A DNA stretch of 64,000 bases from Bacteroidales bacterium (GCA_045600605.1 JAZRYG010000060.1:17131-81130), one strand, 5' to 3'. Shown: positions 39,842-43,764, counted from the stretch's first letter. The notes: generated from the letters alone by a model not told the origin. Program-made: numbers and translations.

Positions 39842-42526
39842 ATGACCAACGAAGAAAAACTCAAAGAGTTACTGAAAAGCCGCGGCATCGACGCGTCAAA
39901 CCTCACCGATGACGTCTCTACGCCGAAGCAGGCGGACGGCTGCGGCAAGCTGATTGACATATATTACACGCTGAAGAACACCGTTGACATGGAGTTTCCG
40001 TACTGGTACAACCGTGTCTGGCAGGAGAACGGCAGCGACGTCATCATGGTGCGCCGCGCCAAGGCGCTTGCAGCGGCGTTCGCGCATCTGACGCCGACGA
40101 TACAGCCGTACGAGCGGCTGGTGATGAACAAGACCCGCCATGTGCGCGGCGCGTTCCCGTTCCCGTGGGTCACGGCCAGCTTCTTCAACGCCCAGGCCGA
40201 GGCTCTCATGAAAGAAGCCGACGCCCCGTCGGAGAGCGAGGCCGACTCCGTATCGATCATCGGTGCGGGCGGCGGCAACGTCACGAAGAGCTACGGCAAC
40301 ATCATCTCAATAGCCAAAAAGTTCGGGATGCGCAAGGAAGAGATACCCGTCTTGGTGAAGACCTGCAGCTACTGGGACGGTAACTCCGTCGAGGAGATGA
40401 GCAACCACTACGCCAAATACACCCCGCAATACGACATCGAACAGGCCATCATGGACTCGGTGCTCTGCATGTTCGACTCTTACTGCATCCCGCAAGGCCG
40501 CGAGGTGATAAACTATTACCTGCCTTTGCAATACGGCTGGGACGGCATCATCGAGCTGTGCGACAAACGCATCGCCGAGACGATGGGAGAGTCGGACGGC
40601 GACGGCCTCATGGGGATGGAACGCGGATATTACTACGTCGCCATGAAACACCTGGCCCAGGGTCTTAGCAAATGGTGCCAGAACTACGCCGACAGGGCAT
40701 ATTACCTCGCATCGGTGGAGACCGACGCCGCCCTGAAGAAGAACTACGAAGAGATCGCCGGCGTGATGGCGCACATCGCACACAAGGCACCCGTGACATT
40801 CCGTCAGGCATTGCAGCTCACACTCGCCTGCCATTACGCGGAGGTCAACGAAGACCCGCAGTCGGGACAGTCGATCGGACGTCTCGGACAGGTGCTTCAG
40901 CCGTTCTACGAGAAAGACATCGACGACGGCGTGACGACGGAGGAAGAGGTGATCGAGCTTTTAGAGTTCTACCGCATCAAGATAACATGCATCGAGTGCT
41001 TCGCGTCGGCGGGCGTGACGGGCGGCGTCCTGTCAGGAAACACATTCAACAACCTGTCGTTGGGCGGATTGAACCGCGACGGACTCAGCGCCGTGACGCC
41101 GTTGGAATACCACATCATCGAGGCCGGAATGCGCTGCCACACCACACAGCCTACATTGTCGATACTGTACGATGAGAAACTGCCGGAGTCGTTCCTGCTC
41201 AAGGCGGCTGCGTGCACGAAGCAGGGCATGGGCTATCCCGCATGGATGAACAACCAGGACGGCATGAATTTCATGATGATGAACTACGGACCCGAAGGCA
41301 TGAACATCGAGGACGCGCGTGCGTGGTGCCTCGGCGGATGCCTCGAGTCGTCGCCGGGCTGCTTCCTGCCGCTCAACTACAACGGCAAGGTCACATGGAT
41401 CCCGGGCGGCGCAGGGCCGACGGCAGGGTCAGGCGTGCATTTCGTGGGACTGCCCAAGATGCTCGAACTCGTGATGACCAACGGCTACGACCGCCGCATC
41501 AACAAACAGGTGCTGCCGGCGCACAACCGCAAACTCGACAGCATGGAGGCCATCCAGGAGGAATGGGTCAGATACATGAACCTCACCATCGACGTGCTCA
41601 ACAAAGTCAACAACCTGCAGATGGACATCTGGCGCAAATACTGCCCGCCGGTCGTCTCCTCGCTGCTCAAGCCTGACTGTTTCGCCAAGGGGCGCGGCCT
41701 CGGCATGATGGGCGGACGCTACAACGCCACCATCAACTTCGAGTCGTGCGGCACCGTGACTTTCGTCAACTCCATGGCTTCATTATATAAGAATGTGTTC
41801 AAAGACAAGAAATACACCCTCGAGGAGATGCTCGACGCGATGATGCACAACTTCGGGTTCAAGACGTCATATGAGACGGGCGTGTTCTCGCCCGACTTCC
41901 GCGAGGCCACCGACGAGGCGCCGAGATACGCACAGATCTTCGCCGACTGCGTCAACGCACCGAAGTTCGGCAACGCCGACTGGGAGGCCGACCGCTTCCT
42001 GAAATGGTACGAAGATGTCATGTTCGGCTTGACGAGACAATACAAGTCATACTACGGCAAGCCGCTGTACATGTGTCAGATTTCCGTCTCGACGCACGGT
42101 CCGCAGGGCTTCATCACACTCGCCGACCCCGCAGGGCGTCTGGCAGGCACCACCTATTCTGACGGCTCCGTGTCGGCGGCGGCAGGCACCGACAAGAACG
42201 GCATCTACGCCATCTTCGAGTCGGCGACGATTTATGACCACAGCACGCAGCAGAACGCACAGATGAACCTCAAGCTGCACCCGTCGGCGGTGAAAGGGCC
42301 GCAGGGCACACGCAAGCTCCTCGACCTCGTCCGCGCCTACATGCGCAAAGGCGGGTTCCACGTCCAGTTCAACATCGTCGATTCAAAGACCCTGAAAAAG
42401 GCGCAGGCCAAACCCGAGAACTACCGCGACCTCATGGTCAGGGTGGCCGGATTCACACAGTATTGGTGCGAGATTGGCAAGCCGATACAGGATGAGGTCA
42501 TCTACAGGACAGAGTACGACGATTAA
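39842..42526 (+). CDS. hpdB: Glycyl radical enzyme, 4-hydroxyphenylacetate decarboxylase large subunit type
   Basis: 894 aa. Glycyl-radical motif RVAGFTQYW (G870) and thiyl loop GGCLE (C500, E502). S341, H533 and E634 sit at a constant -3 offset from the HPAD residues recalled from the literature. Followed by the Cys-rich small subunit and the activase. Confidence 0.8.
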   Translation: MTNEEKLKELLKSRGIDASNLTDDVSTPKQADGCGKLIDIYYTLKNTVDMEFPYWYNRVWQENGSDVIMVRRAKALAAAFAHLTPTIQPYERLVMNKTRHVRGAFPFPWVTASFFNAQAEALMKEADAPSESEADSVSIIGAGGGNVTKSYGNIISIAKKFGMRKEEIPVLVKTCSYWDGNSVEEMSNHYAKYTPQYDIEQAIMDSVLCMFDSYCIPQGREVINYYLPLQYGWDGIIELCDKRIAETMGESDGDGLMGMERGYYYVAMKHLAQGLSKWCQNYADRAYYLASVETDAALKKNYEEIAGVMAHIAHKAPVTFRQALQLTLACHYAEVNEDPQSGQSIGRLGQVLQPFYEKDIDDGVTTEEEVIELLEFYRIKITCIECFASAGVTGGVLSGNTFNNLSLGGLNRDGLSAVTPLEYHIIEAGMRCHTTQPTLSILYDEKLPESFLLKAAACTKQGMGYPAWMNNQDGMNFMMMNYGPEGMNIEDARAWCLGGCLESSPGCFLPLNYNGKVTWIPGGAGPTAGSGVHFVGLPKMLELVMTNGYDRRINKQVLPAHNRKLDSMEAIQEEWVRYMNLTIDVLNKVNNLQMDIWRKYCPPVVSSLLKPDCFAKGRGLGMMGGRYNATINFESCGTVTFVNSMASLYKNVFKDKKYTLEEMLDAMMHNFGFKTSYETGVFSPDFREATDEAPRYAQIFADCVNAPKFGNADWEADRFLKWYEDVMFGLTRQYKSYYGKPLYMCQISVSTHGPQGFITLADPAGRLAGTTYSDGSVSAAAGTDKNGIYAIFESATIYDHSTQQNAQMNLKLHPSAVKGPQGTRKLLDLVRAYMRKGGFHVQFNIVDSKTLKKAQAKPENYRDLMVRVAGFTQYWCEIGKPIQDEVIYRTEYDD

Positions 42527-42558
42527 GTTTTTTATCTATCTGAAAATTGATTATCAAG

Positions 42559-42819
42559 ATGAAACACATAGACTGTAAGAATTACACATATTTAGACTGC
42601 GAGAAAGGCATGTGCGCCATCTCGAAGATGATGTTGCCGATTGACGGCAAGGGCAGCGAGGCTTGTCCGAGATTCGTCATGGCCGAGAAATGCGGCTGCT
42701 GCGCACACTTCATCAACAGCGACGAGCACGGCCTCGGCACATGCACCGGCTTCGAGAAACAGAACTGGGCATACGCCTCATGCGGCGCGGCGGGCTGCGA
42801 ACATTTCAAGATGAAATAG
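42559..42819 (+). CDS. hpdC: 4-hydroxyphenylacetate decarboxylase small (Fe-S) subunit type
   Basis: 86 aa with 10 Cys and 4 His (H3, C6, C14, C19, C36 / C45, C47, C48, C62, C75, C80). Located between the GRE and the activase, as in hpdBCA. ATG at 42559. Confidence 0.7.
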   Translation: MKHIDCKNYTYLDCEKGMCAISKMMLPIDGKGSEACPRFVMAEKCGCCAHFINSDEHGLGTCTGFEKQNWAYASCGAAGCEHFKMK

Positions 42820-42825
42820 TCTCAC

Positions 42826-43764
42826 ATGGACGCACCGCAAGCTGTCATCTTCGACATCCAGCCGTTCTCCGTCCACGACGGCCCGGGCTGCCGCACGACG
42901 ATATTCATGTCGGGCTGCCCGCTCCATTGCCTTTGGTGTTCCAACCCAGAGAATCACGCAGGAAGGCCGCAGCTGATATTCGCAAGCAAGGTGTGCAAAT
43001 GGGCCTCGGGCTGCCGCGCATGTGTCGGCACCTGCCCCAAAGGAGCACTGGCAGCCTCCGACAACGGGATTGAACTCGACCGCGCCGTCTGCCGCGAATG
43101 CACCACCTTCGAGTGCGTGCAGCCGTGCGCGACACATTCGCTGCGCATCTGCGGGAAGTATTATTCCGTCAAGGACGTGATGGACATCCTGCACCGCGAT
43201 TCCAACAACTGGGGCACGGGCGGCGGCGTCACCTTCAGCGGCGGCGACCCGCTGCTGCACCACGACTTCCTCAAAGCCGTACTCGAAGAATGCAAGAAAG
43301 ACAACATCCACACCGCTGTGGAGACATCAGCCTGCATCCCGACGGAGAAATTCATCGAGCTGATGCAACTCGTTGACTTCGCTTTCATCGATGTCAAAAA
43401 CATGGACAACGACAGGCATATTGCAGGAACCGGAGTCCCCAACAACCTGATTCTTAAAAACATAAGCACTCTGGTCGCATCGGGATGGAACGGCAGGCTT
43501 GTACTCCGCTATCCTGTGATAGCCGGCTACAACGACTCCGACGAAAACGCCGTCAAAGTCATAGAGTTCATGAAAGACAACGGCTTGTTTGAAATCAACC
43601 TCTTGAAATTCCACAGATTAGGCCAGACCAAGTGGGAACAACTCGGTTTGTCCTATCCATATTCCACAGGCGGTGACGTCAGCAACGAGATGATGGAACA
43701 CCTGCAGTCACTCTATCTGGAGCATGACATCATCTGTTACATAGGTGACAAGACTCCTTTCTAA
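42826..43764 (+). CDS. hpdA: Glycyl-radical enzyme activating protein (radical SAM)
   Basis: The CPLHCLWCSNPE radical-SAM cluster plus two ferredoxin-like clusters (CKWASGCRACVGTCP; CRECTTFECVQPC), and the GGDPLL SAM motif. Confidence 0.9.
   Translation: MDAPQAVIFDIQPFSVHDGPGCRTTIFMSGCPLHCLWCSNPENHAGRPQLIFASKVCKWASGCRACVGTCPKGALAASDNGIELDRAVCRECTTFECVQPCATHSLRICGKYYSVKDVMDILHRDSNNWGTGGGVTFSGGDPLLHHDFLKAVLEECKKDNIHTAVETSACIPTEKFIELMQLVDFAFIDVKNMDNDRHIAGTGVPNNLILKNISTLVASGWNGRLVLRYPVIAGYNDSDENAVKVIEFMKDNGLFEINLLKFHRLGQTKWEQLGLSYPYSTGGDVSNEMMEHLQSLYLEHDIICYIGDKTPF

Follow-up and report, generated by a model that had tools for sequence, protein, structure and literature searches.

A predicted 4-hydroxyphenylacetate decarboxylase operon on the chromosome of an uncultured gut Bacteroidales bacterium

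Does the three-gene operon hpdBCA, at positions 39842-43764 of a 64-kb stretch of Bacteroidales DNA (GCA_045600605.1, JAZRYG010000060.1:17131-81130; the whole stretch is called the window here), encode a genuine 4-hydroxyphenylacetate decarboxylase (HPAD), and if so, where did the operon come from and what might it do in its host? Such an oxygen-sensitive radical enzyme is predicted to turn 4-hydroxyphenylacetate (4-HPA), which arises in tyrosine breakdown, into p-cresol. This compound is a uraemic toxin that promotes thrombosis, contributes to the bad odour of livestock and acts as an antimicrobial in competition among gut microbes, and current gut models credit its formation to Firmicutes and Coriobacteriia. 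The presence of the operon, first put forward in a preliminary description of the window, was confirmed, and the evidence given below supports the enzyme interpretation offered there. Our overall reading, to which we assign a probability of about 0.88, is that the window carries a complete, functional HPAD of the HpdBCA/CsdBCA type, transcribed from a native promoter in a Limimorpha-type host, and that the cassette probably came from an Acidaminococcaceae-like Negativicute.

The three subunits

The window contains three co-directional open reading frames (ORFs) in the order hpdB-hpdC-hpdA, all on the plus strand: hpdB (39842-42526; 894 aa), for the predicted catalytic glycyl-radical large subunit of HPAD; hpdC (42559-42819; 86 aa), for a HiPIP-like small (gamma) subunit; and hpdA (42826-43764; 312 aa), for a radical-SAM activating enzyme. 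The coordinates and lengths claimed for them earlier matched the ORF listing. The automated listing starts the hpdC ORF at an in-frame TTG at 42547 (90 aa); we placed the start at the ATG, giving 86 aa, because the alignment with CsdC, the Clostridium scatologenes small subunit, and 78 homologues begins at that ATG with M-K/R-H.

The large subunit of the C. scatologenes HPAD (PDB 2y8n_A) matched HpdB with 1557.6 bits over HpdB residues 3-893 at 73.1% identity; the next-best structures, choline trimethylamine-lyases, scored about 250 bits. HpdB also scored 1564.8 bits against NF033715, the curated NCBIfam equivalog model for the HPAD large subunit, whose cut-off is 1150, and Pfam PFL-like and Gly_radical domains were recorded for it. 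The radical glycine, G870, lies in RVAGFTQYW and the thiyl cysteine, C500, in GGCLE; the other key residues are E502, E634, H533, S341, R220, G342, F402 and G529. The HPAD active site in C. scatologenes numbering comprises R223, S344, G345, F405, C503, E505, G532, H536 and E637 (Martins 2011 in PMC4979209), and the roles of Cys503, Glu505 and Glu637 have been described (PMC13450708). In our alignment all nine of these residues and the radical glycine were identical in HpdB at an offset of -3, and they were invariant in 14 of 14 Bacteroidales sequences. The preliminary description had given a constant offset of -3 to S344, C503, E505, H536, E637 and G873 for the six residues S341, C500, E502, H533, E634 and G870, and this held column for column, each residue and both motifs being found in the contexts given there; S341, H533 and E634 thus coincide with the substrate-binding residues of HPAD.

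For HpdC, the small subunit of the same crystal structure (2y8n_B) gave a full-length match with E=3e-38 over residues 1-85, and no other structure in PDB matched. The matches of HpdB and HpdC to the crystallised enzyme are far stronger than chance would produce. The HPAD small-subunit model NF033716 scored 104 against a cut-off of 50, and Pfam 4HPAD_g_N and HPIP_like were found on the small subunit as precomputed hits on an identical database copy. All 11 Cys and His residues claimed earlier were there (H3, C6, C14, C19, C36, C45, C47, C48, C62, C75 and C80), together with H50, H57 and H82, which had not been listed. The small subunit is reported to hold one 3Cys-1His cluster and one 4Cys [4Fe-4S] cluster (PMC13450708). 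The residues H3/C6/C19/C36 and C45/C48/C62/C80 form two predicted [4Fe-4S] motifs in HpdC, and these eight predicted ligand positions were invariant in 79 of 79 HpdC homologues. From the 73% identity of HpdB, the complex is likely to be an alpha4 gamma4 heterooctamer like the crystallised one. As a separate observation, Cys47 (42697-42699) adjoins the ligand C48 to give C-x-C-C; this cysteine occurs in only 15 of 79 HpdC sequences, those of the Bacteroidales clade and of the Negativicutes closest to it, and most others have Asn there.

HpdA carries the CX3CX2C motif as CPLHCLWC (C31/C35/C38) and two ferredoxin-like four-Cys motifs, C57/C63/C66/C70 and C89/C92/C97/C101, as had been described. 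It scored 480 on the HPAD activase model NF033717 (cut-off 420), and a PDB search found it homologous to structures of PFL-activating enzymes.

The nearest relatives of HPAD in the glycyl radical superfamily are other arylacetate decarboxylases, namely indoleacetate decarboxylase (IAD), the phenylacetate decarboxylase PhdB and the AAD type, and one of these might have been mis-assigned as HPAD, the more so as the IAD model NF033718 gave HpdB a partial score of 626 bits. That score lies well under its cut-off of 1100, however, as does that of HpdA on the IAD activase model NF033719 (308 against 425), and HpdB shares only 33% identity with a true IAD (P0211). IAD, a sister family with a similar activase, has neither a small subunit nor the residue called Glu2 (PMC6181972), whereas HpdC and Glu2 (E634) are both present at this locus. 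The AAD-type structure 7e7l_A gave only 209.6 bits over residues 232-891, against 1557.6 for HPAD. The substrate of PhdB is unsubstituted phenylacetate, for which a para-hydroxyl-binding residue is not required; conservation of the equivalent of Glu637, which is specific for the para-hydroxyl group, argues together with the presence of HpdC against PhdB. Mis-assignment is effectively refuted at the sequence level. The equivalog cut-offs, the homology to CsdC and the active-site residues agree in pointing to an HPAD operon of the HpdBCA/CsdBCA type, as first proposed, and not to a generic PFL-like enzyme.

Promoter, chromosomal position and selection

The sequence element TAnnTTTG is the -7 promoter element of Bacteroidota. 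The box that the preliminary description had noted ahead of hpdB, TATCTTTG, was found at 39803-39810, beginning 39 nt ahead of the hpdB ATG. TAnnTTTG occurred 41 times in the window against 22.9 expected by chance, and one lone match is not significant on its own. The promoter and 5' leader of the operon (39790-39841, plus strand), which is AT-rich and has no Shine-Dalgarno site, is near-invariant, with one substitution and one single-base indel among the window and the related loci L001, L002, L003 and L009; thus the box and about 50 nt after it are conserved in five related genomes although the sequence further upstream, including the upstream neighbour, differs. No Shine-Dalgarno site was seen upstream of hpdB in any Bacteroidales locus compared, the leaders being AT-rich, and AGGAGG-type sites were present in six of seven loci of the Acidaminococcaceae group (counting L055). 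A scan for sigma-70 promoters and terminators gave only background-level matches, as expected since it holds no model of the Bacteroidota promoter type, and neither Rfam families nor tRNAs were found in the window. We predict that hpdBCA is transcribed from a native promoter of the Bacteroidota type, TATCTTTG.

The operon lies in the interval between deoC and ettA (39315-43774, no strand assigned), which in the window holds a VTT/DedA-family membrane gene (39311-39754) and hpdBCA. A metagenome scan with deoC as the handle gave 24 related contigs. In contigs of the sister lineage the order deoC ... ettA-GT-GT-LptFG was kept (deoC 79-84% and EttA 95-96% identical) and hpdBCA was not there; in one contig, L097, deoC and ettA are 66 bp apart (L097:1659-1725), an empty site. 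An exact-sequence look-up of the window EttA, also aimed at empty sites, found no match. The VTT/DedA gene was considered as a part of the cassette and ruled out, because in two contigs (L098 and L099) deoC-VTT occurs with no hpdBCA and because the VTT gene is missing from other hpdBCA loci; it lies outside the hpdBCA cassette.

The deoC-ettA interval is itself a variable spot in this Bacteroidales family. In the sister lineage the gap holds a 537-aa protein with a type IX secretion system (T9SS) tail (L085:10836-12449). In L002 (250-5773), L003 and L082 (11386-17098) it holds a 230-aa protein and an Fn3-repeat surface protein, of 1219 aa in L002 and 1669 aa in L082. In L002 and L003 the interval also encodes a coiled-coil protein of 346 aa that has been assigned to no family; the idea that it is an Rpn-type nuclease was dropped for want of Pfam backing.

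Within the group that has hpdBCA, dN/dS was 0.03-0.06 for hpdB, 0-0.27 for hpdC and 0.10-0.17 for hpdA, and dS was 0.17-0.43 for hpdB compared with 0.17-0.49 for the neighbouring ettA. In five related genomes hpdBCA co-diverges with ettA. From the similarity of dS to that of ettA and the low dN/dS we concluded that the cassette has been inherited vertically under purifying selection since the group diverged.

Most of the relatives are metagenome-assembled genomes (MAGs), and some carry implausible bin labels, Patescibacteria (L026) and Alphaproteobacteria (L055), so that one might take the operon for a decaying or silent remnant, or its assignment to Bacteroidales for an artefact of assembly or binning. 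We consider this very improbable. The window is one unbroken 64-kb sequence that carries Bacteroidales genes and TAnnTTTG promoters to both sides of the operon, and the same deoC/ettA flanks recur in the independent assemblies L001, L081, L002, L003 and L009. Moreover, all three ORFs are intact and show strong purifying selection, and the signals for their expression match the Bacteroidota type.

Relatives and source of the operon

Loci related to the operon were collected in a pattern-based scan of one genome per species, from which the best 80 of 192 relatives were kept. The scan missed Olsenella uli despite an HpdB identity of about 68%, so that failure to appear in it says little. In four uncultured Bacteroidales (L001, L002, L003 and L009) HpdB is 96-98% identical to the window protein; in nine others of the order, among them Ca. 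Limimorpha equi, Ca. Colimorpha and Ca. Cryptobacteroides, it is 82-85% identical; and Acidaminococcaceae follow at 74-81%. The B-C-A order was kept in every related locus long enough to judge, and only hpdB, hpdC and hpdA were common across lineages.

Neighbour-joining of 82 HpdB sequences put the 14 Bacteroidales proteins into a single clade (bootstrap 100/100), sister to an Acidaminococcaceae sequence (91) and within an Acidaminococcaceae grade (88). A second HpdB tree was rooted with the verified IAD (P0211) and three other outgroups. From the root towards the window, its branches were Clostridium, Olsenella/Oscillospiraceae, Lachnospiraceae, the main Firmicutes groups, four successive Acidaminococcaceae branches and then Bacteroidales, with bootstraps of 100 for Bacteroidales monophyly and of 97 and 90 for nesting in Acidaminococcaceae. 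The HpdA tree was congruent, grouping Bacteroidales and Negativicutes at 100/100 and Bacteroidales alone at 82/100. The HpdB trees and the empty sites in sister-lineage contigs back the horizontal origin that the preliminary description had suggested. A horizontal origin of the operon is thus supported by the comparisons, an Acidaminococcaceae-like donor is most likely, and Bacteroidales probably gained the three genes alone, in a single event, from such a Negativicute. In Bacteroidales the cassette would have lost the Shine-Dalgarno sites, sensor kinase, regulator and MFS genes of the donor and would then have been inherited vertically within the genus.

No vehicle for the transfer was found on plasmids, where all matches were less than 60% identical and belonged to other glycyl radical enzymes, none to HPAD. 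At the insertion site, a search for mobile-element scars gave only chance-level short repeats and there was no adjacent integrase or transposase gene. Base composition, tried as evidence of transfer, was set aside as uninformative, GC and the GC content of third codon positions (GC3) being only marginally above those of the neighbours. From the absence of a plasmid HPAD and of repeats or an integrase, and from the marginally raised GC3, we concluded that the transfer is old and the sequence ameliorated.

Several features of the wider family were seen in passing. Complete hpdBCA operons occur in MAGs labelled Alphaproteobacteria (L055, JAKSVU010000019.1) and Patescibacteria (L026, DATMYQ010000105.1); the label of the former is probably wrong, because its locus groups with those of horse-gut Acidaminococcaceae and carries a Shine-Dalgarno site. 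The HPADs divide into at least two deeply separated subfamilies, with about 56% identity between them (P0206 and P0423 compared with L041). One is a 905-aa type found in Clostridium sp. HMP27, C. lundense and Crassaminicella, the other contains the window protein, CsdB and most gut sequences, and Sporomusa rhizae appears to have one copy of each. Two glycyl radical enzymes of about 880 aa (P0208 and P0209), some 39-41% identical to HpdB, scored 900-935 bits on the HPAD model and 735-839 on the IAD model, under both cut-offs, and may represent uncharacterised arylacetate-decarboxylase-like families between HPAD and IAD.

Proposed role and comparison with known systems

The host is an uncultured herbivore-gut Bacteroidales bacterium resembling Candidatus Limimorpha. 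The genes around the operon are those of a Bacteroidales chromosome, including two C25 peptidases with T9SS tails, GH3, GH77, LptF/G, ackA-pta, adenylate kinase, deoC and ettA. In NCBI the 90%-identity cluster of HpdB has members in Ca. Limimorpha caballi and in unnamed Bacteroidales and Bacteroidia MAGs, each carrying the name '4-hydroxyphenylacetate decarboxylase large subunit', and relatives of the locus have been recovered from the guts of horse, quagga, donkey and ruminants. Papers on livestock microbiomes place Limimorpha in the rumen and hindgut, and those that we found draw no link between it and p-cresol. Within the Bacteroidales clade of HPADs, a sequence with 84% identity (L007, CAAGMM010000321.1, isolate HGM05159) comes from a MAG whose name points to a human-gut catalogue, so the clade may not be limited to herbivores.

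Other genes of the window were noted beside the operon. Two tandem genes (31598-35014 and 35069-38452) each encode a protein of some 1130 aa that ends in a T9SS sorting domain, and the first protein also has C25 (gingipain-family) peptidase and propeptide domains; the pair suggests a proteolytic lifestyle that could supply tyrosine. At 24678-26030, 14 kb upstream of the operon, there is a transporter gene of the sodium:neurotransmitter symporter family (SNF), members of which carry aromatic amino acids in some bacteria. A small ORF followed by a HipA_C-domain kinase gene (6887-8157) resembles a HipBA-type toxin-antitoxin pair; this is probably a small acquired islet, because GC3 of the HipA_C region is low (0.46-0.47) relative to its neighbours (about 0.7).

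The mechanism that we propose is taken from the family (PMC13450708, PMC4979209). As a radical-SAM enzyme bearing two predicted auxiliary Fe-S clusters, HpdA would generate the glycyl radical on G870 of HpdB, from which the radical would move to C500. The C500 thiyl radical would oxidise the carboxylate of 4-HPA and E634 would take the phenolic proton, in a Kolbe-type decarboxylation; CO2 would be released, E502 would reprotonate C500, and the benzylic radical would retake hydrogen to give p-cresol. HpdC, HiPIP-like and with its two putative [4Fe-4S] clusters, would be needed to assemble the active complex, the small subunit being required for an active HPAD complex in the known enzyme (PMC13450708).

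An HPAD in this host might have a different main substrate, namely 3,4-dihydroxyphenylacetate derived from flavonoids (rutin or quercetin), which would be converted to 4-methylcatechol, with tyrosine-derived 4-HPA as a secondary substrate. The C. difficile enzyme has a Km of 0.5 mM for 3,4-dihydroxyphenylacetate compared with 2.8 mM for 4-HPA, and in the cow rumen formation of 4-methylcatechol competes with that of p-cresol (Selmer & Andrei 2001, as reported in PMC8780962); the relatives of the locus, moreover, were sampled from horse, quagga, donkey and ruminant gut. The residues that bind the para-hydroxyl and carboxylate groups, however, are unchanged from those of the crystallised enzyme with bound 4-HPA, so that 4-HPA should be accepted, and there is no link to flavonoid metabolism at the locus. 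The two activities are compatible with each other, so the question concerns the physiological role and not the family. We regard 3,4-dihydroxyphenylacetate as unlikely to be the main substrate; in herbivore guts the enzyme may just as well act on it.

Homology, residue conservation, architecture, selection, phylogeny and presence or absence were observed directly, and several points must be set against the reading of a functional HPAD acquired from a Negativicute. Enzyme activity, expression and the source of substrate are inferred only, and the host is uncultured. No 4-HPA-forming genes (no IOR/BT0430-like oxidoreductase), dedicated transporter or operon-adjacent regulator were found in the 64-kb window. 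The catalytic roles of E505 and E637 have not been tried by mutagenesis even in the model enzyme (PMC13450708). The trees were made by neighbour-joining on corrected p-distances and not by maximum likelihood, and several taxon labels are MAG bin labels, that of the 'Alphaproteobacteria' L055 being probably mis-binned. Finally, composition neither backs nor dates the transfer, GC3 of hpdB being 0.82 against 0.67-0.78 in its neighbours.

The suggestion in the preliminary description that Bacteroidota would be a new host phylum for HPAD did not stand, because an HPAD from Tannerella forsythia is a reference sequence, a 2026 tree of candidate HPADs has Bacteroidetes as one colour class (Fig. S13, PMC13285125), and the GenBank names of the HpdB cluster were already on record. 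The enzyme chemistry holds nothing new and the database annotation is already correct; the novelty is confined to an uncharacterised new member, and a host clade, within a family well known and annotated before. An in-silico survey had predicted Bacteroidetes to be without a cresol pathway (PMC5682003). In the work of Nemet et al. 2023 (PMC10746243), p-cresol formation needed two organisms, a Bacteroides that converts tyrosine to 4-HPA via the IOR BT0430 and a Clostridium with hpdBCA. The loci described here show a whole clade of gut Bacteroidales with a domesticated, selectively maintained hpdBCA. A Firmicutes origin should therefore not be taken for granted in metagenomic surveys of hpdBCA, and these taxa, abundant and as yet uncultured, may be among the producers of p-cresol and 4-methylcatechol in herbivores. 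A bolder proposal, which we offer tentatively and hold to be somewhat doubtful, is that uncultured gut Bacteroidales of the Limimorpha/Colimorpha/Cryptobacteroides group, in herbivores and possibly in humans too, convert tyrosine to p-cresol self-sufficiently, by a 4-HPA-forming IOR route of the Bacteroides type and an HPAD cassette taken up once from Acidaminococcaceae, produce 4-methylcatechol from flavonoid-derived dihydroxyphenylacetate too, and, through their abundance, could in place of Clostridia be a main source of p-cresol in the guts of horses and ruminants; if true, the 'Bacteroides plus Clostridium' two-organism model would be overturned in those guts.

Among known systems, the CsdBCA enzyme of C. 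scatologenes (PDB 2Y8N/2YAJ) is like that of the window in its B-C-A order, in HpdB (73% identical over the full length), in HpdC residues 1-85 with all Fe-S ligands, and in the nine active-site residues and radical glycine. The window system differs in its Gram-negative Bacteroidales host, its Bacteroidota promoter, the absence of a Shine-Dalgarno site and the extra, clade-specific Cys47 of HpdC. In C. scatologenes the 4-HPA-making genes HpdDEFG/J/K adjoin the operon (PMC13285125), whereas the window locus is without them. Most HPADs are not next to tyrosine-fermentation genes, and neither is HpdBCA of C. difficile (PMC13285125), which belongs to the same family, with the same subunits and operon order. 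The C. difficile protein is more distant, lying outside the 120 best matches to the window HpdB, all at least 62% identical; its operon is induced by 4-HPA, whereas no regulator is visible at the window locus.

The Acidaminococcaceae loci (e.g., L014) are the nearest relatives outside Bacteroidales, with HpdB 74-81% identical, the same B-C-A order and a position sister or paraphyletic to the Bacteroidales clade; L014 and the Schwartzia locus L073, the nearest Negativicutes loci, also share the C-x-C-C of HpdC. Unlike the window, the Acidaminococcaceae loci have strong Shine-Dalgarno sites. In addition, L014 has genes for an sCache histidine kinase, a response regulator, an MFS transporter and two DUF4125 proteins upstream (28-5843) and a hemerythrin gene downstream (10029-10460), none of which is at the window locus. 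In Ca. Colimorpha L008 an OmpR-type response regulator and a histidine kinase are encoded directly upstream of hpdB (4443-5977).

Two further systems place an HPAD in a Bacteroidales cell. The T. forsythia HPAD (A0A1D3UC78) served as a reference sequence in Liu et al. 2018 (PMC6181972). No Tannerella protein was among the 120 best matches to the window HpdB (at least 62% identical), the best 80 of 192 loci, or the 120 best matches to the deep-branching HPAD of Clostridium sp. HMP27. Because it was not among the 120 best matches to the window HpdB, we place it outside the window's 82-98% clade, and by this absence it is probably a separate lineage, which would make at least two HPAD lineages in Bacteroidales. 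Yu et al. 2006 reportedly dealt with the T. forsythensis system. The other system is B. thetaiotaomicron engineered with C. difficile hpdBCA, in which the clostridial operon works in the Bacteroides cytoplasm and the strain is a stand-alone producer of p-cresol from tyrosine (PMC10746243), because Bacteroides itself makes 4-HPA via IOR BT0430. The engineered strain is a synthetic one that relies on a phage promoter, whereas the window locus is its natural, long-established counterpart.

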